NCBI RefSeq assembly: GCF_044704955.1
Contig: NW_027251299.1
Span: 744,001 to 808,000, forward strand
DNA from: Pristiophorus japonicus
Taxonomy: Eukaryota
Length of the DNA stretch: 64,000 nucleotides
Direction: 5' to 3'
A program made the translations under genes and the position numbers. This document shows positions 3,377-57,562 of this stretch, piece after piece. Position 1 is the stretch's first letter, and every line of letters starts with the position of its first letter. A model generated the notes under the pieces. The model was not told the DNA's origin and searched no databases. It was given only the letters and a program-made list of their open reading frames with translations.

Positions 3377-3529
3377 CCTTTAAGCAGCTAACGTTAAATT
3401 AGAGAGTAGTCGGTCTCTGTTATCAATCTCCCAGTGTTAACATAAAATGGTGACCATTAACAAATGTAAAATGGATGACTGAAGATCGGTGTGTGCATTG
3501 TCACTGTGGTTCTGGGAGAGCTTCAGAAA

Positions 3530-5720: not shown

Positions 5721-6422
5721 GAGACCTGGGAGTCATGGTGCATTTGTCATTGAAAGTTGGCAAGTGGTGCACAAGACAAATGGCATATTCGCCTTCATAT
5801 CTCGGGCATTTGAGTATTGGAGCAGGGAGGTATCACTGCAGTTGTACAGGACCTTGGTGAGGCATCACCTGGATTATTATGATCAGTTTTGGTGTCCTAA
5901 TCTGAGGAAGGACGATCTTGCTATTGAGAGAGTGCAGCGAAGGTTCACCAGACTGATTCCCGGGATGCCATGGCTGGCCAATGAGAAGAGATTGGATCCA
6001 CTGAGCCTGCATTCACTGGAGTTTAAATGAATGAGATGGAACCTCTTAGAAACATATACAATTCTGACGGGACTGGACAGTTTAGATGCAAAAAAGAATG
6101 TTTCCGATATTGGGGAAGTCCAAAACTACTGGTCACAGTCTAAGGATAATGCGTAAGCCATTTAGGACCGAGACGAGGAGAGACCTTTTCACTCAGAGAG
6201 TTGTTAACCTGTGGAATTCACTACCACAGAGAGTTGTTGATGCCAATTCGTTAAATATATTCAAAATATGGCCCTTACGGATGGATCAAGGGGTATGGAC
6301 ATAAAGCAGGAACGGGGTACTGAGGTGAATGACCAGCCATGATCTTATTGAATGGTGGTGCAGTCTCGGAAGCCTGGATGGCCTACTCCTGCACCTATGT
6401 TCCATGTTTCTATGTTTCTATA
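5720..6422 (+). mobile_element. CR1 LINE 3' fragment
   Basis: ORF2 C-terminal motifs (LYRTLVRHHLDY, VQRRFTRLIPG, VVNLWNSLP) and a (tttctatg)n tail. Confidence 0.9.
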
Positions 6423-6612
6423 TTTCGTGGGACTGCCTATGATGCTGATGGTGATTCAGCCGGACTGCAGACCCCTCATAGGGCGCCCGTTGTAGACAGT
6501 GTGTGAGTGAGAGTGTTATTATTCACGCGCATGACTGGTCACGCCGGGGAGAGCAGCTCGCCCACAATATCAGGACACAGGGAGTCTGATGCAGGAACGT
6601 TCCTGCGTCTTC

Positions 6613-7514
6613 TCATCGTTTAATTAATTTCAGAATCAGTGTGAAGGGATATTTCCCTACATTCTTCAACTGCTGTCTGAACTTAGTCTGGGTCACGGCA
6701 TAAATTGCCGTGTTTGTGCAGCAACTCAGCAGCTGCAGCATTATTCCAACGTCCATTACATAAAAAGGTATATATAAAGAATCATACCCCAAAAAGTACA
6801 TCTGGGTCCATATAGAATGCACCATAAACACCGCCCACAACAGGATGAAATTGCCGGAGATAACAAACAGTAAAATGATGGAATTCCTGCGGCTGGCCAT
6901 CTCAGGGTCACTGGGACACTCCCCACTGCTGGCACCCAGGAGTTGCCTGCGGGCTCTGCTGGCTAATATAATATGCCTGGCGGTGACAGTATTGAGCAGC
7001 AGAATCAGAGCAAATGGGACACATGGGGTGAGAATATAATGAAGGAATATGATTGTTGTCCAGACCGGTGAATTCAGAACATCATCTGTTATATAGCAAA
7101 ACCAGGGCATGTTTTCAAGTATATAGAAATGTGTCAACATAAAATACCAGAAAATGTTCTTCAACCCGCTCAGCAAAGTCACGGTTCCCAGAACCACAGC
7201 CGCCGTTCTCTCGGTGCAATATTTAGTTTTCAGCTTCTGGCAACAAATGGCCACAAAGCGATCAAAGGTGAAACTGACGGTGAACCAGACAGAACAATCT
7301 GTGGCTGCGTGAAGTAAGACGGCGTGAATATTACAGACGTGGAAGAACCGCACGAAATGGAACTCTTTCTGATAAAGAATCGGAATGTGTCTCAGTATCA
7401 GGTCGAGGATAATGACCAGGAGATCCGTCACTGCCATGGCCACCAGATAGCGAGTGACACATCTGGAGAGACCGCACTTTCCACGAGGCAGGATCACAAT
7501 CGTCAGGATGTTAA
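6613..7514 (-). CDS. GPR139/GPR142-like class A GPCR, terminal exon copy A (end of TM1 to TM7); intact but lacking its own exon 1
   Basis: Uninterrupted 7TM-like frame with AMAVTDLL (TM2), FTFDRFVAIC (DRY-like), WFC (ECL2) and CCTNTAIY (TM7); acceptor tttccctgcctgacag at 7515-7516; 902 nt, phase 1. Confidence 0.8.
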
Positions 7515-7689
7515 CTGTCAGGCAGGGAAATAAACAGGTAAATTAAACATTAATTTGGGAGCAAGGAATAGACTCCAAACTAAAATAATTAACAATCATT
7601 GATAAGTTAATCACCAACTAAATTCAGTCATCAGCATTAAATCAGACGACCCATCCCTCAGTCAATGAGCCGCCAAATGCTTATGTAAC

Positions 7690-8025
7690 ATCATCATCGT
7701 AGGCAGCCCCTCGAAAGCGAGAAAGACTTGCTTCCACGCGAAAAGTGAGTTATCAGGTGACTGAACTGTCCAACATGGTAATTACAGTCTCTGTCACAGG
7801 TGGAACAGAGAGTGGTTGAAGAAAAGGGTGGGTGGGGAGTCTGGTTTGCCGCACGCTCATTCCGCAGCCCTCGCTTGGTTTCTACATGTTCTCGGCGACG
7901 ACTCGAGGTGATCAGCGCCCTTCCGGATGCACTTTCTCCACTTCAGGTGGTCTTTGGCTAGGAACTACCATGTGTCGGTGGGGATGTTGAATTTTAATAT
8001 GAAGGCTTTGAGCGTGTCCTTGAAA
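7690..8025 (-). mobile_element. RTE-clade (BovB-like) LINE 3' fragment
   Basis: (cat)n tail and ggcag..cctcg..cgag.aagacttgcttcc terminus shared with other copies in the window. Confidence 0.8.
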
Positions 8026-8234
8026 CGAGCATTTAAAGTATTTGAACACAAATGGAAGAGATTAATTGTTGTAGCTTTTCACCTGTTGGTTTCCACTTGT
8101 GCAGAGAATATTAGACGAGAAAATATGAAAGTTTGTTCATATTCTAAGTACCTAAATTAAAATCAGCCGGGGTTGATTATCCTGAAATACAACTATTTTT
8201 GATTGAAACTATATATGAATTGCTCCCTCATTAT

Positions 8235-9570
8235 AGAAAGATAGAAACTATAGAAAATTGTTGCAGGAGTAGGCCATTCGGCCCTTCGAGCCTGCACCAC
8301 CATTCAATGAGTTCATGGCTGAACATGCAACTTCAATACACCATTCCTGCTATTTCGCCTTACCCCTTGATCCCCCTGGTAGTAAGTACTGTATCTAACT
8401 CCTTTTTGAATATATTTAGTGAATTGGCCTCAACATCTCTCTGTGGTAGAGAATTCCACAGGTTCACCACTCTCTGGGTGAAGAAGTTTCTCCTCATCTC
8501 AGTCCTAAATGGCTTACCCCTTACCTTAGACTGTGACCCCTGGTTCTGGACTTCCCCAACATTGGGAACATTCTTCCTGCATCTAACATGTCTAAACCCG
8601 TCAGAATGTTAAACATTTCTATGAGATCCCCTCTCATTCTTCTGACTCCATTGAATAAAAGCCCTGTTGATCCAGTCTTTCTTGATATGTCAGTCCCGCC
8701 ATCCCGGGAATCAGTCTGGTAATACTTCGCTGCACTCCCTCAATAGCAAGAACGTCCTTCCTCAAGTTAGGGGACAAAACTGTACACAATACTCCAGGTG
8801 TGGCCTCACCAAGGCCCTGTACAACTGTAGCAATACCTCCCTGCCACTGTACTCAAATCTCCTTGCTATGAAGGCCAACATGCCATTTGCTTTCTTAACC
8901 GCCTGCTGTACCTGCATGCAAACCTTCAATGACTGATGTACCATGACACCCAGGTCTCGTTGCACCTCCCCTTTTCGTAATCTGTCACCATTCATATAAT
9001 AGTCTGTCTCTCTGTTTTTACCACCAAAGTGGATAACCTAACATTTATCCACATTATACTTCATCTGCCATGCATTTGCCCGCTCAGCTAACCTATCCAA
9101 GTCACTCTGCAGCCTCATAGCATCCTCCTCGCAGCTCACACTGCCACCCAACTTAGTGTCATCTGCAAATTTGGAGTTACTACATTTAATCCTCTCGTCG
9201 AAATCATTAATATACAGTGTAAACAGCTGGGACGACAGCATATATCCACGAGTCACTGCCTGCCATTCTGAAAAGTAGCCATTTACTCCTAATCTTTGCT
9301 TCCTGTCTGACAACCAGTTCTCAATCCATGTCAGCACACGACCCCAAATCCCATGTGCTTTAACTTTGCACATTAATCCCTTGTGTGGGACCTTGTCGAA
9401 AGCCTTCTGAAAGTCCAAATATACCACATCAACTGGTTCTCCCTTGTCCACTCTACTGGAAGCAACCTCAAAAAATTCCAAAAGATTTGTCAAGCATCAT
9501 TTCCCTTTCACAAATCCATGCTGACTTGGACCTATCATGTCACCTCATTCCAAATGCACTGCGATGACAT
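8235..9570 (-). mobile_element. CR1 LINE, 5'-truncated RT region
   Basis: VVYLDFQKAFDKV, KFADDTKL and LYRALVRPHLEYC motifs with frameshifts. Confidence 0.92.
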
Positions 9571-9574
9571 ATAT

Positions 9575-9915
9575 GTGCAATAAAACCGATAACTGTAATC
9601 AAATTACACTTTGACCATTGAAGAATCAAATTAAATATGTTTGCCGGTGTTATTGATGCACTTCAGTCCCTCCGGCAGCCACCTCTCGTGGAAGGCCGCG
9701 AACGTTCCGGTGGACACCGCGTGCTCCATCTCCTGGCTTGAACGTTTCCGTGGAAGAGAGGGAGGCAGCCGGGCTGAACGATCCTCTCGACCGTCCGCTG
9801 CCTGGACCAGCTGATGGTCCGCTTGGCCATGTCCCGGAGCAGTCCGACGATGAGGATTCTGACCTCCCGCTCCCCCTCCGCACGAGGGGCCCAAAGATCA
9901 GAAGTGCACAGCCGG
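9575..9915 (-). mobile_element. Tx1-clade LINE 3' fragment, decayed
   Basis: EMEHAVSTGTFAAFHERW matches the ORF end at 42224-42940. Confidence 0.8.
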
Positions 9916-11049
9916 AGGCAACAGATTTTTCCACTGTGTTTCTCGCTGAGAGACGCACTGAACTGTGACAGATCGGCATGGGACCAAATTGCAAATTCAA
10001 ATTAAAGATTGGAAATAAATGAAAGAAATCTGTCTGAACGAACATTTTGTTTGTGAATGTTAATGATGCTTGTGATCCTGTTCCACCCATCAGAAGCACT
10101 GCCATTAATGCAGAACTTGAGATGGTGACAAAGGAGACACTGACTGGAACTAAATGATCAGAGGATATTTACCCGGCTATAACATAGCGTGGACAGAACA
10201 GAGCGAACAGAGTTTCGCTTCCTCTATTCAACTCCAAGTGAGAACAAAAGAGGAGAAATTGGCTGATAAAAGGAAGGAATAAAATAATAAAAAATGGACG
10301 GCCTCTTATATGATTTCTTAATTATTGCATCACAGAAAATAACGGTAAAACTTTCACAATAAATAAATATTCATGAACTTCAGGATCTCTGAGATGATTC
10401 CAGTGATGCGATGAAGGGACTTCCCAGAAAGGGCTCCCATCTCGCTTCAGGAGTTCACACCAACATCTCCCTAGAGTACACTGCTCCCTCCCTCAGTCCA
10501 GATATTTAATGACCAGGTTCGCCTACATTACACTACACCCACCTCTGTCGAGAAATTTCATTCGCAGGTTCGCCTAACTTTCAGTGCTCTCACGTCGGTC
10601 CAGGGATTTCATTCCGAGAGGCAAATATTTTCTCTGCTCATACCTCTGTGATTGGACCTGAGTCTTTGGAATGAACATATGATCTTGGCCGCAACTCCAC
10701 TTCCGTGCCCACTCCACATAACCCTGAACTCCCTTCTCGTTTAAAAATCAGTTTATCTCCATTTAATAAGATTCATAGAAGCTGCCTCCACAGCTCTCTG
10801 TCGAAGAGAATTCGAAAGATTCACGCCCCCCTGAGAGAATAAATTGCTTCTCATTTGTGATTTAAATGGGCGATCCCTTATTCTGAACCTATGTCCCCTG
10901 GTACGCATCGCTGCAAGGGTGCAGCCTTTTCACTTTATGATGCCGAGCATCCTCGGGGAGGGGGATGTTTTTATGTCAATGTGAGTTGGTTTATGTGCAG
11001 TTAATAACAGTGAGTTTCCCCAGGGATTGACTTCCTGTTATTTTCCCAG

Positions 11050-13690
11050 TAGGGGCAGTGAGTGACCGTGAGCTGCCCCAGGGAGGGGGCAGTGTGTGAT
11101 GTCCCTCTGGGGGGTGTGGGGGGGAAACTATGTGCAGTGAGTGACCGTGAACTGCCCCGGGGTGGGAGCAGTGTGTGATGTCCCTGTGGGGGGTGGGGGG
11201 CAGGACATATTGTGCAATGAGTGAAACAGATCTGCCCCGGGGAGGGGGCCGTGTGTGATGTCCCTGTGTAAGATTAAATTGGAAGTCTCTTTGGATTGTC
11301 TGCTCAATGTACTGAAGGTGAAACTACATTATTTATTATTTTCAACAGTTTGCAAATTTTATGTGTGAATCTACCTTGAAAGAAGCGAAATGTGCGATAA
11401 ACTAAGAAAGTTCTGAGCTCCCGGGTGTTATTTCCCAGTGATAATACCTGTGTTTCCCATTGATAATGTGTGATTGAAACACCATAGTCACTGGTGACAG
11501 AGCCAGATCCTTGCGTCAGCAGAAACTCCAAAGCCATGTGTTAGTCATTGCAGAAAGTAGTTTTTGAAAGAAAGTCTTTGGTTCAATTTACACTTGCAAT
11601 GCCTCATCCTGAAAAATACTCTCCAAAGCCAGTGTTCTTACAGGTGGATGCAGTTTGTGATCTCCATGTGAGGTACAGTTTCTTCAGGTCATGTCCCTGA
11701 GCAGCCCCATGGATTGGGCAGTGTGTGATGTCCCTGCAGGGTGCAGTACGTTCTGAGTCTTACACTTAGCTGCCACAGGGATGGGGCACTGTTTGATGTC
11801 CCTGTGGGTTGTAGTGTCTGACCTGAGCTGCCCCAGGGAGGGGGCAGTGTGTGATTTCCCTGTGGTGTGCAGCGACTGACCCTCAGCTGCTATAGGGAAA
11901 GGGCGTTGCGTGATGTCCCTGTGGGGTGCAGTGTCTGACGCTCAGCTGCACCACGGAGCGGGCAGTGTGTGATGCCCCTGCAGGGTGCAGTACGTTCTGA
12001 GTCTGACCCTTATCAGCCACAGGGAGGGGGCAATGTGCGATGACCCTGTGGGTGCAGTGTCTCACCCTAAGCTGCCCCAGGGAGGGAGCAGTGTGTGATG
12101 TCCCTTTAGGGTGCAGTACGTTCTGAATCTTACACTTAGCTGCCACAGGGATGGGGCAGTGTGTGATGGCCCTGTGGGTTGCAGTGTCTGACCTTAGCTG
12201 CCCCATGGAGGGGGCAGTGTGTGATTTCCCTGTGGTGTGCAGTGACTGACCCGCAGCTGCTATAGGGAAAGGGCGTTGCGTGATGTCCCTGTGGGGTGCA
12301 GTGTCTGACGCTCAGCTGCACCAGGGAGCGGGCAGTGTGTGATGTCCCTGCAGGGTGCAGTACGTTCTGAGTCTGACCCTTATCAGCCACAGGGAGGGGG
12401 CAATGTGCGATGACCCTGTGGGTGCAGTGTCTCACCCTAAGCTGCCCCAGGGAGGGAGCAGTGTGTGATGTCCCTTTAGGGTGCAATACGTTCTGAATCT
12501 TACACTTAGCTGCCACAGGGATGGGGCAGTGTGTGATGGCCCTGTGGGTTGCAGTGTCTGACCTGAGCTGCCCCATGGAGGGGGCAGTGTGTGATTTCCC
12601 TGTGGTGTGCAGTGACTGACCCTCAGCTGCTATAGGGAAAGGGCGTTGCGTGATGTCCCTGTGGGGTGCAGTGTCTGATCCTGAGCTGCCCCAGGAAGCG
12701 GGCAGTGTGTGACGTCAATATGTGGTCGGGGGAGGGGGGAGCACTTTGAGCAGTGAGTGACTGTGAGCTGCCCCAGGGAGTGGGCAGTGTGTGATGTCAC
12801 TGTTTGGTGCAGTGTCTGAACATCAGCTGCGCCAATGAGGGGGCAGTGTGTGATGTCTCTGTGGGGGGTTGGCACTTTATGCAGCGAGTGACCCTGAGCC
12901 GGCCGTGTCTAATGTCTCTGTGGAGAGCAGTATGTTGCAATTATGACCCTGAGTTTCCCCAGGGAGGGGATAACGTGTGATGTCCCTGTGGGGAGCAGTG
13001 TGTTCAGTGTCTGACCCTGAGCTGCCCCAGGGAGGGGATAATGTGTGATATCCCTGTGGAGTGCAGTGTGTTCAGTGTCTGACCCTGAGCTGCCCCAGGG
13101 AGGGGATAATGTGTGATATCCCTGTGGAGTGCAATGTGTTCAGTGTCTGACCCTGAGCTGCCCCCGGGAGGGGGTAATGTGTGATGTCCCTGTGGAGTGC
13201 AGTGTGTTCAGTGTCTGACCCTGAGCTGCCCCCGGGAGGGGGTAATGTGTGATGTCCCTGTGGAGCGCAGTGTGTTCAGTGTCTGACCCTGAGCTGCCCC
13301 AGGGAGGGGATAATGTGTGATGTCCCTGTGGGGTGCAGTGTGTTCAGTGTCTGACCGTGAGCTGCCCGCGGGAGGGGGTAATGTGTGATGTCCCTGTGGG
13401 GTGCAGTGTGTTCAGTGTCTGACCGTGAGCTGCCCCAGGGAGGGGATAATGTGTGATGTCCCTGTGGGGTGCAGTGTGTTCAGTGTCTGACCGTGAGCTG
13501 CCCGCGGGAGGGGGTAATGTGTGATGTCCCTGTGGGGTGCAGTGTGTTCAGTGTCTGACCCTGAGCTGCCCCAAGGAGGGAGCAGTGTGTGATGTCCCTG
13601 TGGGGGGTGGGGGGTTGGGGTCAGGGGGTGGCACTTTGAGCAGTGAGTGACTGTGAGCTGCCCCGACGTTGGGGCAGTGTATGATGTGCC
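11050..13690. repeat. 67/68-bp GC-rich satellite (gagctgccccagggaggg..cagtgtgtgatgtccctgtggg), including a 370-bp higher-order repeat
   Basis: Tandem units; variant ctgctatagggaaagggcgttgcg recurs near 11881, 12251 and 12621. Confidence 0.9.
11349..11643 (+). pseudogene. Decayed Ig-superfamily-like exon, copy 1
   Basis: ttttcaacag acceptor and ag|gt end; 295 nt; C...(TGA at the Trp position)...GSIYTC; paralogous to 14921-15214. Confidence 0.4.
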
Positions 13691-13756
13691 TGCGTAAGAT
13701 TAAATTGGAACTCTCTTTGGACTGTCTGCTCAAAAGACTGAAGCTGACACCACACT

Positions 13757-14902
13757 GCGAATAGTTCAGATTTTATTTAAGGATAAGCGAGAATTAATAA
13801 CGGAGTTGAGCAGAAGTTTTCTAATTAAAAATGAGAATGATATTACTCGTGATGGTGATTTGGGAAGGAGGAAGGATTATTCCTCGTTCCTGCTACTGAT
13901 ATACCGTCTGCCCCTCTCTGGATCGGTGCCTTTCCTGACACGACCACGATGAGAATAATCCAAATTCATGAAGATACACCCCAGGAACTGAGCCACCAAA
14001 AAATCTGTCCAAGGGTGTATCTCCTGGTGTGGGTTATTAAAAATATAACACTCACACGTAAGGTCATTTATCGAGAAAAGTGTTGTTTATTAAAACCAGA
14101 TTAATCAACGGAGATCCAGCCTCATTAGTACCGTTACTGACTGCTCTCAACGCCGATCTCATGGGACAAGCTACGCAGTTACATTCTTATATAGTTCAAA
14201 TACAGTCAAAATGGTGGAACTACGCGGGGAAGTGTTCTATTGGTTAATACAGGTTACAGCAATTTCATTTGGTGGTACAGTAACATTAATTTTATTGGAT
14301 ACAGTAAATTCTAATGATTCCATTGGTTCATTCAGTTCTGGCGACTGTTGCTGTGGAAAAGCCTCTGCAGGTTTTGTGTTACTTTCCTGCGAAGCTCTTC
14401 CCAGGCTAATTCTCAGGCTCATGTTCTTGGCAGACATATGGCTACCGTCTGCTTAAAAGAGGCATTGTCCCTGTTATCTCCTGTGGCTGGAACATCGTGG
14501 CCTCCTCTCATTATATTTGTGAGGTGTCTACATAAATCTTATGGGTGCACTAATCACCTTAGAGAATTTCTCTGACTGTAGTGTTTCTGCCTAACACAGC
14601 TGTTCTACCATGAACGCACTTTAAATTTTGCTCTCAGACTTTCTTACTTTATTTAAATTACACCTCATTACTTTACCCCTAATTCAGGTATTTCGCTCTT
14701 ACACTCCTATAGATCCACATCTTCCCAGTCTGGAGCCTGGGACCCTCTGTCTCCAGGCATTGGTTTTGACAGATCTTATCTTCAACCTCAGTACAAGCTT
14801 TTTCTGTTATGTTTTTCAGCTTCCATGCTGACGACGCAACACAGGATTTTGATAGTAATGAGTCCTAACTAAGTGCATTACAATTTGAAAAAACGATTTA
14901 TA
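13757..14902 (-). mobile_element. LTR-like insertion (putative LTR 14006-14882 plus PBS/leader)
   Basis: Absent from the paralogous segment at 11300-11348; minus strand has TG...CA ends, CCAAT (14239-14243), TATATAA (14187-14193), AATAAA (14086-14091), then TGGTGG PBS-like at 13998. Confidence 0.5.
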
Positions 14903-14920
14903 ATTTATTATTTTCAACAG

Positions 14921-15214
14921 TTTGCAAGTGCTCTGTGTCATTCTACGTTCAGAGAAGTGAGATGAGCGACAAACTAAGACAGATCTGAGCTCCTCGGTGC
15001 TATTTCCCAGTGATAATACGTTTGTTTCCGAGTGATAATGTGTGATGTAACACCATAGTGACTGGTGGCAGAGCCAGGACCTTGCGTCAGCATAAAATCC
15101 AAAGCAGTGTCTTTGTCTTTGCAGAAGCAAGCTTTTCAATGAACGTCTTTGGTTCATTTTACACTTGCAATACCTAATCCCTCAAAATATACTCCGAAGC
15201 CTGTATTCTTACAG
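14921..15214 (+). pseudogene. Decayed Ig-superfamily-like exon, copy 2
   Basis: 294 nt, phase 1/1, one frame with 3 stops; Cys at 14998, TGA 15 codons later, FYTC with Cys at 15166. Confidence 0.45.
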
Positions 15215-15249
15215 GTGCATGCATGTTGTGATCACCCTGTGAGGTGCAT

Positions 15250-18200
15250 GTCCCTGAGCTGCCCCAGGGAGCGGACAATGTGTGATGACCCTGTGGGGTG
15301 CAGTTTCTCATTCTGAGCTGCCCCAAGGAGGGTGCAGTGTGTGATGTCCCTGTGGTGTGCAGGGAATTCAGTGTCTGGCCCTGAGCTGCCCTAGAGAGGG
15401 GCAGTGTGTGATGTCCCTGTGGGGTGCAGTAAGGCGTGAGTCTGTCCCTAGGCTGCCCCAGGGATGGGGAAGTGCGTGATATCACTGTGGGGTGCAGCGT
15501 CTGAGCCTGAGCTGCCTCAGAGAGGGGCAGTGTGTAATGTCCCTGTGTGCTGCAGTGTCTGACCCTAAGCTGCTCTAGGGAGCGGGCTGTGTATGCTGTC
15601 CCTATGCGGTGTGGCTTGTTCAGTGTCTGCCCCTGAGCTTCCCCGGGGTGCAAGCAGTGCGTGATGTCCTGTGGGGTGAAGTAAGGCGTGAGTCTAACCC
15701 TGAGCTGCCCCAGGGAGGGGGTAGTGTGTGTTGACACTGTGGGGTGCAGTTTCTGACCTGAGATGCCCCAGGGAGGGGCGGTGTTTGATGTCCTGTTGGG
15801 GTGCAGTGTCTGACCCTGAGCTGCCCCAAGGAGCGGGCAAAGTGTGATGATGATGTGGGGTGCAGAATGCTCAGTGTCTGACCCTGAGCTGCCCCAGGGA
15901 GGGGGCAGTGAGAAATGTCCCGGTGGGATGCAGTAAGTGGCGAGTCTGACGCTGAGCTGCCCCACGGAGGGGCAGTGTGTGATGTCCCTGTGGGTGCAGT
16001 ATGTTCAGTGTTTGACCCAGAGCTGCCCCACAGAGGGGCAGTGTGTGATGTCCCTGTGGGTGCAGTATGTTCAGTGTCTGACCCAGAGCTGCCCCACAGA
16101 GGGGCAGTGTGTGATGTCCCTGTGGGTGCAGTATGTTCAGTGTTTGACCCAGAGCTGCCCCAGGGAGTGTGCAGTGTGTGATGTCTCTGTGGGTGCAGTA
16201 TGTTCAGTGTTTGACCCAGAGCTGCCCCAGGGAGGGTGCAGTGTGTGATGTCCCTGTGGGTGCAGTATGTTCAGTGTCTGACCCAGAGCTGCCCCAGGGA
16301 GTGTGCAGTGTGTGATGACCCTGTGGGTGCAGTATGTTCAGTGTCTGACCCAGAGCTGCCCCAGGGAGTGTGCAGTGTGTGATGACCCTGTGGGTGCAGT
16401 ATGTTCAGTGTTTGACCCAGAGCTGCCCCAGGGAGGGTGCAGTGTGTGATATCCCTGTGGGTGCAGTATGTTCAGTGTCTGATCCAGAGCTGCCCCAGGG
16501 AGGGTGCAGTGTGTGATGTCCCTGTGGGTGCAGTATGTTCAGTGTCTGATCCAGAGCTGCCCCAGGGAGGGTGCAGTGTGTGATGTCCCTGTGGGTGCAG
16601 TATGTTCAGTGTCTGATCCAGAGCTGCCCCAGGGAGGGTGCAGTGTGTGATGTCCCTGTGGGTGCAGTATGTTCAGTGTCTGACCCAGAGCTGCCCCACG
16701 GAGGGGCAGTGTGTGATGTCCCTGTGGGTGCAGTATGTTCAGTGTTTGACCCAGAGCTGCCCCAGGGAGGGTGCAGTGTGTGATGTCCCTGTGGGTGCAG
16801 TATGTTCAGTGTCTGATCCAGAGCTGCCCCAGGGAGGGTGCAGTGTGTGATGACCCTGTGGGTGCAATATGTTCAGTGTCTGATCCAGAGCTTCCCCAGG
16901 GAGTGTGCAGTGTGTGATGACTCTGTGGGTGCAGTATGTTCAGTGTCTGACCAAGAGCTGCCCCAGGGAGTGTGCAGTGTGTGATGACCCTGTGGGTGCA
17001 GTATGTTCAGTGTTTGACCCAGAGCTGCCCCAGGGAGTGTGCAGTGTGTGATGACCCTTTGGGTGCAGTATGTTCAGTGTTTGACCCAGAGCTGCCCCAG
17101 GGAGTGTGCAGTGTGTGATGTCCCTGTGGGTGCAGTATGTTCAGTGTTTGACCCAGAGCTGCCCCAGGGAGTGTGCAGTGTGTGATGTCCCTGTGGGTGC
17201 AGTATGTTCATTGTCTGACCCAGAGCTGCCCCAGGGAGGGTGCAGTGTGTGATGTCCCTGTGGGTGCAGTATGTTCAGTGTCTGACCCAGAGCTGCCCCA
17301 GGGAGGGTGCAGTGTGTGATGTCCCTGTGGGGTGCAGAATGTCACAGTCTGACCCAGAGCTGCCCCAGGGAGGGTGCAGTGTGTGATGACCCTGTGGGTG
17401 CAGTATGTTCAGTATTTGACCCAGAGCTGCCCCAGGGAGTGTGCAGTGTGTGATGTCCCTGTGGGATGCAGTATGTTCAGTGTCTGACCCAGAGCTGCCC
17501 CAGGGAGGGTACAGTGTGTGATGTCCCTGTGGGTGCAGTATGTTCAGTGTCTGACCCAGAGCTGTCCCAGGGAGGGTGCTGTGTGTGATGTCCCTGTGGG
17601 GTGCAGAATGTCACAGTCTGACCCAGAGCTGCCCCAGGGAGGGTGCAGTGTGTGATGACCCGGTGGGTGCAGTATGTTCAGTGTCTGACCCAGAGCTGCC
17701 CCAGGGAGTGTGCAGTGTGTGATGACCCTGTGGGATGCAGTAAGTGGTGAGTCTGACCCAGAGCTTCCCCAGGGAGGGTGCAGTGTGTGATGACCCTGTG
17801 GGTGCAGTATGTACAGTTTCTGGCCCAGAGCTGCCCCAGGGAGGGTGCAGTGTGTGATGACCCTGTGGGTGCAGTATGTAGTGTCTGACCTAGAGCTGCC
17901 CCAGGGAGGGTGCAGTGTGTGATGTCCCTGTGGGTGCAGTATGTTCAGTGTTTGACCCAGAGCTGCCCCAGGGCGGGTGCAGTGTGTGATGTCCCTGTGG
18001 GTGCAGTATGTTCAGTGTCTGACCCAGAGCTGCCCCAGGGAGGGTGCAGTGTGTGATGTCCCTGTGGGTGCAGTATGTTCAGTGTCTGACCCAGAGCTGC
18101 CCCAGGGAGAGTGCAGTGTGTGATGACCCTGTGGGTGCAGTATGTTCAGTGTCTGACCCAGAACTGCCCCAGGGAGGGTGCAGTGTGTGATGTCCCTGTG

Positions 18201-18500
18201 GGTGCAGTATGTTCAGTGTTTGACCCAGAGCTGCCCCAGGGAGGGTGCAGTGTGTGATGACCCTGTGGGTGCAGTATGTTCAGTGTCTGACCCAGAGCTG
18301 CCCCAGTGAGGGTGCAGTGTGTGATGACCCTGTGGGTGCAGTATGTACAGTGACTGACCCAGAGCTGCCCCAGGGAGGGTGCAGTGTGTGATGTCCCTGT
18401 AGGGTGCAGTATGTTCAGTGTCTGACCCAGAGCTGCCCCAGTGAGGGTGCAGTGTGTGATGACCCTGTGGGGAGCTGTATGCTCAGAATCTGACCCTGAG
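15250..18500. repeat. 67-bp satellite array
   Basis: Homogeneous unit gggtgcagtatgttcagtgtctgacccagagctgccccagggagggtgcagtgtgtgatgtccctgt, period 67. Confidence 0.95.
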
Positions 18501-18925
18501 CTCTCCTCACACATACTTTTCTCGGGGACATTTCCGCGTCTCTCAGTTGGAATTAAATTGTGGGACATCCCCATCTGCTGGACGCAGGTGGCACTACTGA
18601 ACAGATCGTGATGGCTCAGATCATTCACAGAGTCATCGAATAGCAACATCCGGCCAGGAGAATTAATCTTATTTTCGGTTGTATTGACGACATACTTGGT
18701 AATTTACAGTATTGGTAGTAAGCCTTTAAAAAGACCATCATTCTTTCCTTTGTTTGAAAAATATCCAGAATATTAACCACAGCTCAGGTACAGTTCAGAC
18801 ATGGATGTGATTAAAACTAGCACTAACATCAGAAGTCACAAGGGGAATCTTTTGTGAACTGCTCGGTGTGTGTTTCAGCAGATAGCTCTAATAAGTACCT
18901 CCCTTCCCACACTGGGAGCAGGTGA

Positions 18926-21900: not shown

Positions 21901-22638
21901 CTGTCTCCATTTTACATCCCTCTGTCTCCCTGCATAGGTTCCCATCCCCCGTGATGTTAGTTTAAGTCCTCCCCAACATCACCAACAAACACTCCCCCTG
22001 GGACATTGGTTCCGGTCCTGCCCAGGTGCAGACCCTCCGGCTTGTACTGGTCCCACCTCCCCCAGAACCGATTCCCATGCCCTAGGAATTTGAACCCTTC
22101 CCTCTTGCACCACTTCTCAAGCCACGTATCCATGTGAGCTATCCTGCGATTCCTCCTCTGACGAGCACGTGGCACTGGTACCGATCTTGAGATTACTACT
22201 TTTGAGATCCTAGCTTTTAATTTAGCTCCTACCTCCCGAAATTCGTCTCGTAGGACCTCATCCCTTTTTTTTTACCTACATCGTCGGAACCGACAGCACT
22301 ATGACAATTGGCTGTTCACCCTCCCTCTTCAGAATGTCCTGCACCCGCTCCGAGACATTCTTCACTGTTGCACCAGTGAGGCAACATACCATCCTGGCAT
22401 CTCGGTTGCGGCTGCAGAAACACCTATCTATTTCCCTTACAATCGAATCCCCTCTCACTAGAGCTGTCCAACTGATTTTCCTGCCCTGCTGTGCAGCAGA
22501 GTCACCCACGGTGCCTTGACCTTGGCTGCTGCTGCTCCACCTGATGAGTCATCCCCCTCAAAAGTACCCAAAGCGGTGTATCTGTTTTGCAGCTGGCTGG
22601 ACGCATGGGACCCCTGCACTCCCTTCCTTGCACTGCTC
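18926..22638 (-). mobile_element. Near full-length decayed CR1 LINE (ORF1 esterase-like, ORF2 endonuclease and RT)
   Basis: GDSIVR esterase motif, endonuclease motifs NVRSI/ITETWL/VYRPPNS/IMGDFN, RT motifs and 3' tail; many disablements. Confidence 0.92.
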
Positions 22639-22725
22639 TCCTCAGTGTCAACTCACTGATGCACCATCAAGCGGGAGGGATGGGTGGATCCATTGCCATA
22701 CACGGTACGTTTAACAGCGTAAGGT

Positions 22726-23818
22726 CATAAGAACATGAGAAATAGGAGTAGGAGGAGGCCACACGGCTCTTCGAGCCTGCTCCACCATTTAATACGACCA
22801 TGCCTGATCTGATCACGGATTCAGGTCAACTTCCCTGCCTGTTCCCCATAACCCCTTATCCCTTAGCCCACATCAGTTAAGAAACTGTCTATTTCTGTCT
22901 TAATTATATTCAATGACCCACCTTCCACAGCGCTCTAAGGCAGCGAATTGAACACCTCTACTAAGCTTTGAGAGAAGAAATTCCTCCTCATATCAGGTTT
23001 AAATGGGCGTTGCACCTCCCCTTTTCCAAATCTGCCGCCATTCAGAATATTAGGAAAAGGGGAGGTGCAACGAGACCTGGCTGTCATGGTACAACAGTCA
23101 TTTAAAGGTGGCATGCAGGTATAGCAGGCGGTGAAGAAGGCAAATTGGTTGTTGGCCTTCATAGCGAGGGGATTTGAATATAGTAGCAGCGAGGTCTTAC
23201 TGCAGTTGTACAGGGCCTCAGTGAGGCCTCACCTGGAATATTGTGTTCAATTTTGGTCTCCTAATCCGAGCAAGGACGTTCTTGCTTTTGAGGGAGTGCA
23301 GCAAAGGTTTACCAGACTGATTCCCGAGATGGCAGGACACATATATGAGGAGAGACTGGAGCGACTGGGACTGTATTCACTGGATTTCAGAAGGATGAGA
23401 AGGGATCTCATAAAAACAACTAACATTCTGACCGGACTCGACAGGGTAGATTCAGGAGGAACATTCCCGATGTTGTCGAAGTCCAGAACCAGGGGACAGT
23501 CTTAGGATAAGGGGTAGGCCATTTAGGACTGAAATGAGGAGAAACGTCTTCACTCAGGGAGTTATTAAGCTGTGGAATTCCCTACTGCAGAGATTTGTTA
23601 ATGCCAGTTAATTGGATAAAGTCAAGAGGGAGTTAGATATGGCCCTTACAGCTAAATGGATGAAGGGTTATGGAGAGAAAGGAGTAAATGGGTACTGAGG
23701 TGAATGATCAGCCATGATCTTATTGAATAGTGGTGCAGGTTCAAAGGGCCGAATGGCCTACTCCTGCAACTATTTTATATGTTTCTCTGTTTTTAATGTC
23801 CCCTTATTCTAAGATTTA
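22726..23818. mobile_element. Nested CR1s: minus-strand 3' fragment (22726-23007, 23800-23818) interrupted by a plus-strand CR1 (23008-23790) with a short 5' inversion
   Basis: Host continuity aaatgggcg|cccttattctaagatt; perfect 20-bp inverted repeat 23008-23027/23053-23072. Confidence 0.8.
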
Positions 23819-24219
23819 CCTTGTTTCTCTCCGCTGTGAATCCACTGCAGTTCCAGGGGTTTCGTGGACTGAGTGAATCCCTTCGCACGCCCGTGGCAGG
23901 TAAATAATCTCTCTCCAGTGTGAACTCTTTGGTGTGTCAGCAGATGGAACGAGTGCGTAAAAGACTTTCCACAGTAAGAGCCTCTGAGTTGTAGCTCTCG
24001 TCAGTGTGAATTATCGCGTGCTTCTGCACGCCGGATGAATTATTGATTTGCTTCCCACACACGGCACAGAACTCCCTCCCGATGATGTGAACACGCTGAT
24101 TATTTTCCAAATATCACTATTACTACCCTAACGCTTTTGGACTTCACAATAACTTGCCTAAATTATTGCTCCTTGATTTCTCTCCCAACGCATCATTTGT
24201 CGGCGTGGAAGTAAGCCCT

Positions 24220-25463
24220 CTTCATGCTTGACCAAACTTCAAGAATTTTTTGAGGATTTAACGAGTAGAGTGGACAAGGCGGAACCAGTGGTTGTGGTGT
24301 CTTTCAAAAAGCGCTGGACAAGGGCCCACACAAGAGATGGTTGTACAACATTAATGCACATGGTATTGGTGGTAATATTTTGATGTGGGTAGAGATCTAA
24401 TTGGCACACAGGAAACAGAGTCTCGGGATGAACGGGTCCTTTTAAGAAAGGCAGGCAGTGACTAGTGGGGTGCAGATGGGCTCAGTGCTGGGACCCCAGC
24501 AATTTACAATATACATCGATGATTTAGGTGAAGGAATTGTGTGTAATATCTCCCAGTTTGAAAATGATACCAAGGTGGGTGGCGGTGTGAGTTGTGAGGA
24601 ATATGCTAAGAGGCTGCAGGTTGACATGGACAGGTTCGGTGAGTGGGCAAATACATGGCAGATGAGGTATAATGTGGATAATTGTGAATTTATCAATTTT
24701 GGTGGCGAAAACGTGAAGGCAGAATATTATCTGAATGGTGGCTGATTAGGAAAAGGGGAGGTGCAACGAGACCTGGGAGTCATGGTGCAACTGTTATTGA
24801 AAGTTGGGAACTGGTGAACAATACAAATGACATGTTCGCGTTCATAGCGAGGGGATTTGAGTATTGGAGCAGGGAGGACTTACTGCAGTTGTACAGGGCC
24901 TTGGTGAGACATCACCTGGATTATTATGATCAGGTTTGGTGTCCTAATCTGAGGAAGGACGGTCTTGCTATTGAGAGAGTGCAGCGAAGTTTCACCAGAC
25001 TTATTCCCGGGATGCATGGCTGGCATATGAGAAGAGATTGGATCCACTGGGCCTGTATTCACTGCAGTTTAAGTGAATGTGAGGGGACCTCTTAGAAACA
25101 TAAAAAATTCTGACGGGACTGGACAGTTTAGATGCAGAAAGAATGCTCCCAATGTTGGGGAAGTCAAAGCTACTGGTCACAGTCTAAGGATAATGCGTAA
25201 GACATTTAGGACCGAGATAAGGAGAAATCTTTTCACTCAGAGAGTTGTGAACCTGTGGAATTCACTACCACAGAGAGTTGTTGATGCCAATTCGTTAAAT
25301 ATATTCAAAATATGGCCCTTACAGATGGATCAATGGGTATGGAGAGAAAGCAGGAACGGGGTACTGAGGTGAATGAACAGTCATGATCTGATTGAATGGT
25401 GGTGCAGTCTCGAAAGGCCGAATGGCCTACTCCTGCACCTATGTTCCATGTTTCTATGTTTCT
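24220..25463 (+). mobile_element. CR1 LINE, 5'-truncated
   Basis: GSVLGP, IYIDDL and NDTK RT motifs and 3' tail. Confidence 0.9.
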
Positions 25464-25656
25464 ATATTTCGTGGGACTGCCTATGATGCTGATGGTGATT
25501 CACCCGGACTGCAGACCCCTCATAGGCCGGCCGTTGTAGACAGTGTGTGAGTGAGAGTGTTATTATTCACGCGAATCACTGGTCACGCCGGGGAGAGCAG
25601 CTCGCCCACAATATCAGGACACAGGGAGTCTGATGCAGGAACGTTTCTGCGTCTTC

Positions 25657-26558
25657 TCATCGTTTAATTAATTTCAGAATCAGTGTGAAGGGATATTTCC
25701 CTACATTCTTCAACTGCTGTCTGAACTTAGTCTGGGTCACGGCATAAATTGCCATGTTTGTGCAGCAACTCAGCACCTGCAGCATTAATCCAATGTCCAT
25801 TACATAAAAAGGTATATATACAGAATCATAGCCCAAAAAGTACATCTGGGTCCATATAGAATGCACCATAAACACCACCCACAACAGGATGAAATTGCCA
25901 GAGATAACAAACAGTAAAATGATGGAATTCCTGCGGCTGGCCATCTCAGGGTCACTGGGACACTCCCCACTGCTGGCACCCAGGAGTTGCCTGCGGGCTC
26001 TGCTGGCCAATATAATATGTCTGGCGGTGACAGCATTGAGCAGCAGAATCAGAGCAAATGGGACACATGGGGTGAGAATATAATGAAGGAATGTGATTGC
26101 TGTCCAGACCGGTGAATACAGAACATCATTTGTTGCATAGCAAAACCAGGGCATGTTTGAAAGCGTATAGAAACCTGTCAACATAAAATACCAGAAAATG
26201 TTCTTCAACCCGCTCAGCAAAGTCACGGTTCCCAGAACCACAGCCGCCGTTCTCTCGGTGCAATATTTAGTTTTCAGCTTCTGGCAACAAATGGCCACAA
26301 AGCGATCAAAGGTGAAACTGACGGTGAACCAGACAGAACAATCTGTGGCTGCGTGAAGTAAGACGGCGTGAATATTACACACGTGGAAGGACCGCACGAA
26401 ATGTAACTCTTTCTGATAAAGAATCGGAATGTGTCTCAGTATCAGGTCGAGGATAATGACCAGGAGATCCGTCACGGCCATGGCCACCAGATAGCGAGTG
26501 ACACATCTGGAGAGACCGCACTTTCCACGAGGCAAGATCACAATCGTCAGGATGTTAA
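25657..26558 (-). CDS. GPR139/GPR142-like class A GPCR, exon 2 (copy B)
   Basis: Intact 902-nt phase-1 exon with acceptor AG at 26559-26560; joins exon 1 in frame (..VVGFA-V-NILTIVILPRGKCGLS..) giving 360 aa. Confidence 0.9.
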
Positions 26559-26732
26559 CTGTCAGGCAGGGAAATAAACAGGTAAATTAAACATTAATTT
26601 GGGAGCAAGGAATAGACTCCAAACTAAAATAATTAACAATCATTGATAAGTTAATCACCAACTAAATTCATTCATCAGCATTAAATGAGACGACGCATCC
26701 CTCAGTCAATGAGCCGCCAAATGCTTATGTAA

Positions 26733-27070
26733 CATCATCATCATAGGCAGCCGCTCGAAAGCGAGAAAGACTTGCTTCCACGCGAAAAGTGAGTTAACAG
26801 GTGACTGAACTGTCCAACATGGTAATTACAGTCTCTGTCACAGGCGGGACAGAGAGTGGTTGAAGAAAAGGGTGGGTGGGGAGTCTGGTTTGCTGCACGC
26901 TCATTCCGCAGCCCTCGCTTGGTTTCTACATGTTCTCGGCGACGACTCGAGGTGATCAGCGCCCTTCCACATGCACTTTCTCCACTTCGGATTGTCTTTG
27001 GCTAGGAACTACCATGTGTCGGTGGGGATGTTGAATTTTAACATGAAGGCTTTGAGCGTGTCCTTGAAAC
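26733..27070 (-). mobile_element. RTE-clade LINE 3' fragment (duplicate of 7690-8025)
   Basis: Same sequence within the duplication. Confidence 0.8.
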
Positions 27071-27279
27071 GAGCATTTAAAGTATTTGAACACAAATGGA
27101 AGAGATTAATTGCTGCAGCTTTTCACCTGTTGGTTTCCACTTGTGCAGAGAATATTAGACGAGAAAATATGAAAGTTTGTTCATATTCTAAGTACCTAAA
27201 TTAAAATCAGCCGGGGTTGATTATCCTGAAATACAACTATTTTTGATTGAAACTATATATGAATTGCTCCCTCATTATA

Positions 27280-28615
27280 GAAACATAGAAACTATAGAAA
27301 ATTGTTGCAGGAGTAGGCCATTCGGCCCTTCGAGCCTGCACCGCCATTCAATGAGTTCATGGCTGAACATGTAACTTCAATACACCATTCCTCCTATCTC
27401 GCCTTACCCCTTGATCCCCCTGGTAGTAAGTACTGTATCTAACTCCTTTTTGAATATATTTAGTGAATTGTCCTCAACATCTCTCTGTGGTAGAGAATTC
27501 CACAGGTTCACCACTCTCTGGGTGAAGAGGTTTCTCCTCATCTCAGTCCTAAATGGCTTACCCCTTATCCTTAGACTGTGACCCCTGGTTCTGGACTTCC
27601 CCAACATTGGGAACATTCTTCCTGCATCTAAACTGTCTAAACCCGTCAGAATTTTAAACGTTTCTATGAGATCCCCTCTCTTTCTTCTGACTCCATTGAA
27701 TACAAGCCCTGTTGATCCAGTCTTTCTTGATATGTCAGTCCCGCCATCCCGGGAATCAGTCTGGTAATACTTCGCTGCACTCCCTCAATAGCAAGAACGT
27801 CCTTCCTCAAGTTAGTGGACAAAACTGTACACAATACTCCAGGTGTGGCCTCACCAAGGCCCTGTACAACTGTAGCAATACCTCCCTGCCACTGTACTCA
27901 AATCTCCTTGCTATGAAGGCCAACATGCCATTTGCTTTCTTCACCGCCTGCTGTACCTGCATGCAAACCTTCAATGACTGATGTACCATGACACCCAGGT
28001 CTCGTTGCACCTCCCCTTTTCGTAATCTGTCACCATTCATATAATAGTCTGTCTCTCTGTTTTTACCACCAAAGTGGATAACCTCACATTTGTCCACATT
28101 ATACTTCATCTGCCATGCATTTGCCCGCTCACCGAACCTGTCCAAGTCACTCTGCAGCCTCATAGCATCCTCCTCGCAGCTCACACTGCCACCCAACTTT
28201 GTGTCATCTGCAAATTTGGAGTTACTACATTTAATCCTCTCGTCGAAATCATTAATATATAGTGTAAACAGCTGGGACGACAGCATATATCCACTAGTCA
28301 CTGCCTGCCATTCTGAAAAGTAGCCATTTACTCCTAATCTTTGCTTCCTGTCTGACAACCAGTTCTCAATCCACGTCAGCACACTACCCCCAATCCCATG
28401 TGCTTTAACTTTGCACATTAATCTCTTGTGTAGGAACTTGTCGAAAGCCTTCTGAAAGTCCACGTATACCACATCAACTGGTTCTCCCTTGTCCACTCGA
28501 CTGGAAACATCCTCAAAAAATTCCAAAAGATTTGTCAAGCATCATTTCCCTTTCACAAATCCATGCTGACTTGGACCTATCATGTCACCTAATTCCAAAT
28601 GCGCTGCGATGACAT
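27280..28615 (-). mobile_element. CR1 LINE RT fragment (duplicate of 8235-9570)
   Basis: 243-aa RT ORF 27807-28538. Confidence 0.92.
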
Positions 28616-28619
28616 ATAT

Positions 28620-28960
28620 GTGCAATAAAACCGATAACTCTAATCAAATTACACTTTTACCATTGAAGAATCAAATTAAATGTGTTTGCCGGTGTAGTTG
28701 ATGCACTTCAGTCCCTCCAGCACCCACCTCTCGTGGAAGGCCGCGAACATTCCGGTGGACACCGCGTGCTCCATCTCCTGGCTTGAACGTTTCCGCGGAA
28801 GAGAGGGAGGCAGCCGGGTTGAACGATCCTCTCGACCGCCAGCTGCCTGGACCAGCTGATGGTCCGGTTGGCCATGTCCCGGAGCAGTCCGACGATGAGG
28901 ATTCTGACCTCCCGCTCCCCCTCCGCACGAGGGGCCCAAAGATCAGAAGTGCACAGCCGG
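28620..28960 (-). mobile_element. Tx1-clade LINE fragment (duplicate of 9575-9915)
   Basis: EMEHAVSTG motif. Confidence 0.8.
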
Positions 28961-29699
28961 AGGCAACAGATTTTTCCACTCTGTTTCTCGCTGACAGATG
29001 CACTGAACTGAGACAGATCGGCATGGGACCAAATTGCAAATTCAAATTAAAGATTGGAAATAAATGAAAGAAATCTGGCTGAACGAACATTTTGTTTGTG
29101 AATGTTAATGATGCTTGAAATCCTGTTCCACCCATCAGAAGCAGTGCCATTAATGCAGAACTTGAGATGGTGACAAAGGAGACACTGACTGGAACAAAAT
29201 GATCAGAGGATATTTACCCAGCTATAACATAGCGTGGACAGAACAGAGCGAACAGAGTTTCGCTTCCTCTATTCAACTCCAAGTGAGAACAAAAGAGGAG
29301 AAATTGGCTGATAAAAGGAAGGAATAAAATAATAAAAAAATGGACGGCCTCTTATATGATTTCTTAATTATTGCATCACAGAAAATAACGGTAAAACTTT
29401 CACAATAAATAAATATTCATGAACTTCAGGATCTCTGAGATGATTCCAGTGATGCGATGAAGGGACTTCCCAGAAAGGGCTCCCATCTCGCTTCAGGAGT
29501 TCACACCAACATCTCCCTAGAGTACACTGCTCCCTCCCTCAGTCTAGATATTTAATGACCAGGTTCGCCTACATTACACTACACCCACCTCTGTCGAGAA
29601 ATTTCATTCGCAGGTTCGCCTAACTTCCAGTGCTCTCACGTCGGTCCAGGGATTTCATTCCGAGAGGCAAATATTTTCTCTGCTCATGCCTCTGTGATT

Positions 29700-30560
29700 G
29701 GACCTGAGTCTTTGGAAAGAACATCTGATCTTGGCCGCAACTCCACTTCCGTGCCCACTCCACATAACCCTGAACTCCCTCCTCGTTTAAAAATCAGTTT
29801 ATCTCCATTTAATAAGATTCATAGAAGCTGCCTCCACAGCTCTCTGTCGAAGAGAATTCGAAAGATTCACGCCCCCCTGAGAGAATAAATTGCTTCTCAT
29901 TTGTGATTTAAATGGGCGATCCCTTATTCTGAACCTATGTCCCCTGGTTCTAGATTTTCCCCACTAGAGGAAGCATCATCTCTGCGTCTACCCCATCAAG
30001 CCACTATAGAATCTTACACATTTAAATAAGATCACCTCGTAGTTTTCTAAACTCCAATGTACACACACCCATCCTGCTCAACCTTTATTCTTATGACAAC
30101 ATTTTCATCCCAGTAATCAACGTCGTGAACCTTCTCTGAACTGCCTGCAATGAAAGTAAATCCTTCCTTATCTAAAGTGACCAAAACTGTACACAATACT
30201 CCAGCTGTAGTCTTATCGACAACCTGCATTGTTGTAGCAGGACGTCTATATTCTGTCCCACTTGAAATAAAGCCAGACATTCTGCTGCCTTTTCTAATTG
30301 CTAGCTGTACCTACATGCTAACCTTCTGTGCTTTATGTACAACAACCATTGACCAATCTGGACCACAGCAATTTGGAATCCCTCCCCATTTAATAATAAT
30401 TTGCTTATTTATTTTTCATAACAAAGAAGATAACGTCACCTTTTCCACATTATACCCCATCTGCCATTGTTGTGGCCCACCCACTTAGACTATCTATATG
30501 CCTTTGCATATTTTTGCGTCCTCCGCACAACATGCTTTCACACTTATCATTGTATTATCA
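29700..30560 (-). mobile_element. Older CR1 LINE 3' fragment
   Basis: Decayed C-terminal ORF2 sequence. Confidence 0.7.
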
Positions 30561-31030
30561 GTGCTTCGATGCTGGTACACCTGGACAGTTCCATTGGGCG
30601 GGCCACATCTTCCGGATGCCTGACACAAGACTCTCAAGCAAGCGCACTACTCGGAACTCCTACACAATAAGCGAGCCCCAGGTGGGCAGAGAAAACTTTT
30701 GAATGAAACGATCAAAGCCTCCTTGATGAAATGCAACATTCCAACCAACAGCTGAAAGTCCCTGGCCCATAACTGCCTGAAGTGGAGGAAGAGCATCCAG
30801 GAGAGCGTTGAGCACCTCGAGTCTCGTCGCCGAGAGCATGCAGAGACCAAGCGCAGGAGTAAGAAGGAGCGTGTGGCAAACGAGCCCCATCCACCCTTTC
30901 CTTCAACCACTCTCTGTCCCACGTGTGACAGAGATTGTATTTCCATATTGGACTGTTCAGTTACATAAGAACTCATTTTAGAGGAAGCAAGCCTTCCTCT
31001 ATTTAAAGTGACTGTCTACGATGATGATGT
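30560..31030 (+). mobile_element. RTE-clade LINE 3' fragment
   Basis: WAGHIFRMPDTRL motif and (gat)n tail. Confidence 0.85.
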
Positions 31031-32458
31031 TGTATCATCAGCAAATATTTAACATTTAATTTAGATTTTCAAAATTATGATGGGTTTTAAGAGAGCGAGT
31101 AAGTCACAAAGGTTTCCAGTTGCACAATGGTGCAGAACCAGAGGAGACAGGTTTAAGGTAATTGACAAAAGAACCACAGGAGAGATGGGAAGAGTGTTCT
31201 TTATGCAGTGAGCTGTTGCGATCAGGAATGCAATTTGTGAGAACACGGTGGAAGTAGATTCAATCGTTACTTTCGAAAGGGAATTGCTTTATTCGTGGAA
31301 GGAGATATATTTACATTTTTCTGGCTAAAGAGTTGTACATCTGAGATAGTTCTATCCAAGTGGCGGCATGGACACGATGGACCGAGTTGACTTTCTTTGC
31401 TGTATTAATCTAACATTCTATGAGCAAGAGACAAAGAGAGTGAAATGTAGAGAGACAGAATGAAACTGACAGAGAGACAGAGAGGAAGTGAGAAACTTAC
31501 AAAGTGCCAGAATGAATGAGTAAAAGAGAATAGAGAGAGTATGGCTGGAGGACGAATAGAGGGAAGTAAATTAACATTTATTGGGCAATTGGATAAATAC
31601 TTGAAGGGGAAAAAATTGCTGGACTATGGGAATAGAGCAGGGGAATGGGACTAATTGGAGGGGGTGAAACCATGGTGGGAGCTGAACACATGGATGAGAA
31701 TAATAAAAATGAGACATTATTTAATCGGGATCCAATTTTGGTGGAAGAGCAGATTGTTAATGGGTGAACAGGACTTAGTGGAGTTAGGATATGATCAGTA
31801 AATTATTTAACTGAGCTCTAATTTATAATGGACTGTAACTGCGAGGTGGACAAGGAAAGCATTGCAATGGTCAATTACTGTTCAACAAAGTCACTGGGCT
31901 ATTGAGGCGAAGGAATGAGTTGGGCAGTATTATGGAGATGATAGTGGGCAGGACCAGTGATTCAAAGGAGAAGAGGTCAGAACTGAACTCAGGGTAAAAC
32001 AGAATGCCGAATTTGCGAGCAATCTCGATCAGCCTCAGACATTGGCCACAGAGGGGACTAAGTCACTAGATATACAATGTGATGAAAACTTCCAAAGATT
32101 TAAGTGACATACTCAGTAATACAGTGAAATATAGATTAGAGTTATAATTGCTGGATATTGAGACTTACGAGGAACACCAACAACACCAAAGAGTGTGGAA
32201 TAAATTAAAAGAACACTCGTACAATTAACAACGTATGCACAGTTAATAGCTGGATGCAGAGATGTCCCAGGAACAACAACTGAAGCAAAGATGAGAAAGC
32301 AATTTACAAGTCCAGTAATACAGCGAAACATGGTTTGCAGAGTTAATAGTTGGATACAGAGACTACCAGGAAAAACAAATGCAGCAAGGAGGTGGGAGTA
32401 AAATATGAGATAAGTAATACATTGAACCATGGTTACTGGAATAACGAGATAGACTTAC

Positions 32459-32639
32459 CAGCAAAACCAACAACAGCAAGGACGGGATAGTAAATGTATT
32501 GAATAATACGAAATGCATAACGCATTCGCAATACGAATGGTAGTTCCTCATAATGTGCAACAAGATAGTTAAAATACAAGATGAAACTCTTGCCATTTGT
32601 TGTAACATTCCAATCCATTTTTTTCAGATTCTGATCCAT
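32459..32639 (-). CDS. GPR139-like GPCR exon 1 (N-terminus and most of TM1)
   Basis: MDQNLKKMDWNVTT..IQYIYYPVLAVVGFA then G|GTAAGT donor (32453-32458); NVT sequon; phase 1 matches both exon 2 acceptors. Confidence 0.88.
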
Positions 32640-57424: not shown

Positions 57425-57562
57425 CTGTAAAAGAGGGACAAAAGATTGAAGCAGGGATTTAGTGCTTTGGGGCATTTATCTCAGGGTTGTTATCAATGAA
57501 ACGTTCAGAGATTTGGCAAACCGCTTCAGTCAGCTCGAAGCGAATGCACTGAATCTTCTCAC

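Follow-up and report, generated by a model that had tools for sequence, protein, structure and literature searches.

The window, as we call the whole stretch of 64,000 nucleotides analysed here (C687:744001-808000, in a searched genome of 5.9 Gb), contains a two-exon receptor gene, gene B, and downstream of it on the same strand a further open copy of the large second exon, copy A. This layout raises the question of whether one first exon serves both second exons, so that two receptors are made from one gene, or whether copy A belongs to the remains of another gene.

Gene B and the orphan exon

Coding exon 1 of gene B, at 32459..32639 (−), comprises 181 nt from the ATG to a phase-1 GTAAGT donor and encodes the N-terminus and the first part of TM1. 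Exon 2, at 25657..26558 (−), comprises 902 nt and encodes the rest of the 7TM domain (Pfam 7tm_1); the intron between them is 5,900 nt long, against a family median of about 5,870 nt. Copy A, at 6613..7514 (−), is an orphan exon 2, also of 902 nt, with an open frame and no exon 1 of its own. The two exon-2 copies differ at 28 nucleotides and 17 amino acids (pS 0.036, pN 0.030; flanking intron divergence 2.4%), the 112 intron bases ahead of their acceptors are identical, and exon 1 joined to either of them gives an open frame of 360 aa. In all of this an earlier, sequence-only reading of the locus, which had described a single exon 1 and two open exon-2 copies with 28 differences, proved exact to the coordinate. 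It had also held the interval 7515-25656 to be gap-free and devoid of an exon 1; this interval contains zero N, and neither blastn (word 7) nor tblastn detects a homologue of exon 1 in it or in any other part of the window. An Rfam gathering scan of the whole window gave 0 matches. In many paralogues (L001-L030) an out-of-frame ATG is found 11 nt before the receptor start, which is absent in the window copy.

Both exon-2 copies pass the curated Pfam cut-off for 7tm_1 (56.5 and 61.5 bits versus 30.5), and the receptor is a class A (rhodopsin-family) GPCR. A protein search returned 2,493 database relatives at E ≤ 1e-10, the best 120 of which are all from sharks and are named 'probable G-protein coupled receptor 139'. 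Likeness to the solved human GPR139 chains is weak (phmmer, E 3.9e-5), and the label of the shark proteins is a product of automatic naming; the receptor is an orphan GPCR. Of the expanded, two-exon GPR139-like shark family to which the gene had been assigned, the expansion is borne out by database annotation; the likeness to human GPR139 is weak. We found no description of this shark expansion in a literature search (few subscription papers, no supplements).

Origin of copy A and the junction at 10902

The closest relatives of copy A are the copies on contigs C1864 and C1198, from which it differs by 7 and 8 nt, respectively, compared with 28 nt from B, and 27 of the 28 A-B differences are common to A and C1198 or C1864. 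At exon-2 position 179, copy A carries a base that none of the 102 other copies has. In a tree of 103 exon-2 sequences, which is a quick tree whose topology gene conversion may distort, A, C1198 and C1864 form a clade (SH-aLRT 99), and monophyly of A and B is rejected with the same 103 sequences (p-AU 0.003). The C1198 copy is part of an intact two-exon gene on a different contig, with its own exon 1, which differs from exon 1 of gene B at 1 of 181 nt, at position 122; C1864 is a 24.9-kb contig that ends short of where an exon 1 would be visible. The 3' flank of copy A (1027..6612) is colinear with the flanks of C1198 and C1864 (97.7-99.2%) and, below 5720, unlike the flank of B. A local tandem duplication of exon 2B is ruled out by this C1198/C1864-like flank together with the tree, and A and B are thus not the sister exons, born by tandem duplication within a gene, that alternative exons would be. 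A long short-period satellite array, which may mark cassette ends, lies just left of the window (L072-L073, C687:724001-744000) and also flanks C1198 and C1864.

The homology between A and B extends over 5720-10902 and 24767-29948, respectively (5.2 kb at 96.6% identity), and breaks off sharply at 10902, which the sequence-only reading did not record. Up to this point copy A retains the 3' part of its intron (7515..10902, −; 3,388 nt), with 99.7% identity to C1198 and 97.5% to B. Beyond it, the segment 10903..24766 carries LINE fragments, minisatellites and an amplified non-coding block, and since two complete genes on C3347 align colinearly with 10901-32612 at 92-95%, this segment is the native 3' flank of B, ordinary for a B-type gene. 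At the join itself (10901..10902) the two sides share only 2 nt, a 2-bp microhomology, the sequence on either side being non-homologous, and a 34-nt pattern across the junction occurs once genome-wide with up to 2 mismatches allowed. Neither is the layout of one first and two second exons conserved in the paralogues, as the C1198 gene and three genes on C3347 have one exon 2 per exon 1. Insertion of B into the intron of A, which would make exon 1 A's own, is contradicted by the divergence from C1198 beside 29948, which is 2.6% on both sides (87/3,389 and 66/2,509) versus 0.3% for A. The window is best read as a complete IgM-plus-receptor cassette to which the tail of another, C1198-like cassette is joined.

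Two further features of this region were observed. In L108, L111, L114 and L128 a 2.26-kb LINE insertion lies at, or within a few bases of, intron position 29948, the equivalent of 10902 in A, which may be a coincidence or the mark of a fragile site. In addition, a block at 13650-15200 is co-amplified with receptor genes (40 scored copies at ≥92%, of 994 candidates), with no Pfam match in the two frames tested.

A join of this kind could also have been made during assembly, if two paralogous cassettes, or two haplotypes, that lie apart in the genome had been misjoined at 10902, in which case A would have its own exon 1. Near-identical duplications and satellites abound here, the junction occurs only once, and identity on the A side reaches 99.2-99.7% with C1198 and 99.1% with C1864, a contig which may be allelic. 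Misjoins usually fall within long repeats, whereas the present join is sharp to the base, its two non-homologous sides having no more than 2 nt in common, and thirteen further exon-1-less copies exist, several of them with the same breakpoints on different contigs. We consider a misjoin highly improbable. Sequencing run X1 gave patchy cover over 5700-15200 (contigs) and no informative joint, and is no evidence either way.

Expression of A might instead start at a first exon that is private to it and not homologous to exon 1, or at its own first in-frame ATG, given that its acceptor is intact and that 13.9 kb of B flank lies upstream of it. This interval is, however, ordinary B-type flank, in which seven frames were tested, six matching no Pfam family and one a LINE endonuclease. 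Translation from exon 2A alone would begin no earlier than residue 87, its first Met, at the cost of TM1. To expression of this kind we attach almost no credence.

Copy A very probably derives from a second paralogous receptor gene, of which it is the 3' half, exon 1 being absent, and as such it is likely a young, non-expressed pseudogene remnant. Like other 5'-truncated fragments, it lacks its own first exon and promoter, has a complete sister gene (C1198), and ends at a defined breakpoint (10902). We infer that a C1198-like cassette lost exon 1, the promoter and 2.5 kb of intron in a rearrangement at the 2-bp microhomology, likely through deletion of DNA between tandem cassettes or through a template switch, and that A is now silent. 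Gene B is predicted to be transcribed, with exon 1 spliced over the 5.9-kb intron to exon 2B, the nearer of the two identical acceptors, and the frame of A has likely stayed open only for want of time since the event.

A young pseudogene had already been offered as the simpler alternative in the sequence-only reading, and it fits these results; the weight given there to the lack of a stop in A, despite the substitutions, does not hold. The 27 of 28 differences that are shared with C1198 or C1864 are older than the truncation, and the open frame is therefore no evidence of function. The end branch of copy A is only 0.0014, too short for a constraint test, and for that reason an open frame is expected by chance (1-4 random substitutions leave it stop-free in 86-96% of cases).

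Census and selection in the receptor family

DNA searches gave 280 exon-1 and 2,243 exon-2 candidates, the best 40 of each, which were scored, being ≥92% and ≥96% identical, respectively. A genome-wide pattern scan found 58 exon-1 donors versus 106 exon-2 acceptors, 100 of the latter being listed. By position, 58 of the listed exon-2 sites pair with an exon 1, and the 42 unpaired ones are A, C1864 and 40 others, which were fetched; a diverged exon 1 is present at 27 of these, and at 13 no exon 1 lies within 8.9 kb. Altogether, 85 of the 100 listed sites (of 106) have their own exon 1 and 14 do not, the remaining one being C1864, which ends too early. The idea that one exon 1 serves arrays of exon 2 throughout the genome, which the counts of 58 and 106 could suggest, was discarded, as at 27 of the 40 unpaired sites fetched an exon 1 exists, too diverged for the pattern to match. 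Six of the 13 were followed out to about 29 kb, and no exon 1 of any gene was found there. The 14 orphans represent about 6 breakpoint classes, and these counts are therefore not independent. The reverse case was also observed, in L165 (C4234:862167-871667), where an exon 1 has no exon 2 within 9 kb.

The exon-2 frame is open in 37 of the 88 copies with an exon 1 and in 6 of the 14 orphans (Fisher p=1; C1864 left out of the 103 sequences). Exon 2 is broken in 51 of the 88, although some 1-nt indels scored as breaks may be assembly errors. By this measure the orphans are no more often broken or decayed than complete genes, which is a counterpoint to reading A as a remnant. The omega values point the other way. 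For the 30 fully intact genes omega lies below 1, at 0.635 (p=6e-5), and for the 58 broken copies it is 0.89. The 14 orphans have a value of 0.96, which takes in branches older than the truncation and is not different from 1 and different from 0.636 (p=0.02). In the intact genes the omega of ECL2, with loop limits set by eye, is 1.34, which is not different from 1 (p=0.44), and positive selection on this loop was not retained as an explanation.

These data bear on the proposal that A is an alternative last exon, that is, that in some transcripts of gene B exon 2B is skipped and exon 1 is joined to A over 24.9 kb, to give a 360-aa receptor with a different ECL2. The frame, phase and 112 nt of acceptor of A are intact and identical to those of B, and could be used by a read-through transcript. 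Furthermore, 6 of the 17 residue changes fall in the approximate ECL2, and a comparable arrangement exists elsewhere as a five-copy block, in which the upstream exon 2 stops after codon 189 and an orphan exon 2, about 35 kb downstream, is open in 4 of 5 copies. The members of this block are L109/L198 (C133), L117/L140 and L118/L141 (C2712), L123/L143 (C3478) and L132/L236 (C4001), the exon 1 of the upstream gene on C4001 being outside the stretch examined. Against the proposal, the A-B differences arose in another gene lineage, the layout is unique to this copy, the orphan omega is near 1 and that of ECL2 is not significant. The product would, moreover, nearly duplicate the C1198 receptor, from which it differs at 6 of 360 residues. 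Use of A would require that the identical, nearer acceptor be skipped and that transcription read through 13 poly(A)-like hexamers between the B stop and A (A(A/T)TAAA, motif matches only) before a 24.9-kb intron is spliced. We regard an alternative last exon as very unlikely at this locus. The more general notion of one head with many bodies, in which exon-1-less 7TM exons left by rearrangement would be recruited as alternative last exons, seems to us equally doubtful; the window locus and the five-copy block would be its best candidates.

The splicing of a constant N-terminus to mutually exclusive 7TM cassettes, as put forward in the sequence-only reading, thus finds no support, since A stems from a different paralogous gene; it also runs against the family norm of one exon 1 per exon 2, with exon-1-less copies evolving neutrally. 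If skip-splicing did occur, it would be a cassette mechanism for generating diversity in vertebrate class A GPCRs, of which we found no description in a limited literature search. On the most likely reading, copy A is of little consequence. It belongs to a set of at least 14 fragments without a first exon in a young receptor subfamily, and it cautions that counting open exon-2 frames in this family gives too many functional genes.

An IgM-receptor unit and comparison with known systems

The IgM cluster that had been noticed beside the receptor is real. The segment 32640..64000, which consists of a spacer and an IgM constant region, is colinear at ~96-99% with C1198 and C3347 and co-duplicates with the receptor gene. 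It includes a TM exon (57560..57691, −, the lower bound being approximate), CH4 with a secretory tail (61387..61785, −, Pfam C1-set, in a four-C-exon layout) and an open frame holding CH3 (62269..62664, −, Pfam C1-set). We take these C1-set exons to be of the IgM class from features of shark IgM sequences. The CH2, CH1, J and V frames lie just outside the window; V, J, CH1-4 and TM are all open and, with two D segments read by eye, make up an IgM minicluster. Between the TM exon and the receptor, at 50385-54188, there are frames that by eye resemble a decayed LTR retroelement, two of which were tested and gave no Pfam match.

A CH4 search gave 141 candidates, and among the best 40, which were scored, 14 are 97-100% identical. 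In 10 of these 14 closest copies a receptor exon 1 lies 20-31 kb downstream on the same strand, and an 11th is colinear to the end of its contig, about 0.4 kb short of exon 1. The three copies on C27 share the IgM-side part only, with no receptor within about 39 kb; on the same contig (L215, C27:19734001-19744000) the match to the IgM TM exon is interrupted at about residues 20-24, which suggests a broken anchor in that cluster. The units are found at window 24767-64000 and on C1198, C158, C3807 (two), C2057, C1937, C90 (two), C3347 and C1478. In the single control from the main IgM region, on C23, no receptor was found within 49 kb. Most IgM-linked exon-2 copies form one clade with B, the group of A being the exception.

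These associations show that the IgM cluster and the receptor gene were duplicated together; they speak for co-duplication, not for shared function. We found no paper on an IgM-GPCR unit; in term look-ups, PMC5192425 was without 'GPCR' and PMC12227049 without 'GPR' or 'G protein'. We hold the co-duplication to be firmer than the skip-splicing reading, and, the two-acceptor layout being real and ordinary, the IgM-receptor unit is the more interesting by-product of the analysis. Amplified to about 11 places in units of at least 40 kb, it shows a route by which shark IgM clusters multiply outside the main IgM region, and it makes it possible to ask whether the IgM enhancer acts on these receptors in B cells.

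Multigene families that evolve by birth and death, such as the vertebrate OR and V2R clusters, hold 5'-truncated pseudogene fragments. The receptor family resembles them in its many recent copies, in having more than half of its exon-2 copies broken (51/88), in its rearranged partial copies and in its neutral remnants. Unlike such remnants, copy A has a usable acceptor and follows an intact gene in the same orientation, hence its cassette look. The receptor also resembles the shark 'probable GPR139' proteins, with the same Pfam 7tm_1 domain and top matches that are 91-93% identical.

Splicing of the two exon-2 copies as cassettes would work like Drosophila Gr39a, in which, according to PMC2204066, shared constant exons are spliced to large alternative exons, four or five in number, which are under purifying selection and conserved between species. 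The window has, in contrast, a single extra exon, which comes from a different gene, is unique to one copy and belongs to a class with omega near 1. Its layout thus resembles that of Gr39a-type loci and lacks two of their defining features, the origin of the alternative exons as sisters and the conservation of the layout. Finally, the elasmobranch IgM minicluster has the layout VH-D1-D2-JH-C, as given in PMC5192425, and the cluster described here agrees with it in holding V, D, J, CH1-4 and TM exons together, here beside a receptor. It differs from the miniclusters of that account in that this IgM subfamily was duplicated together with a GPCR gene.
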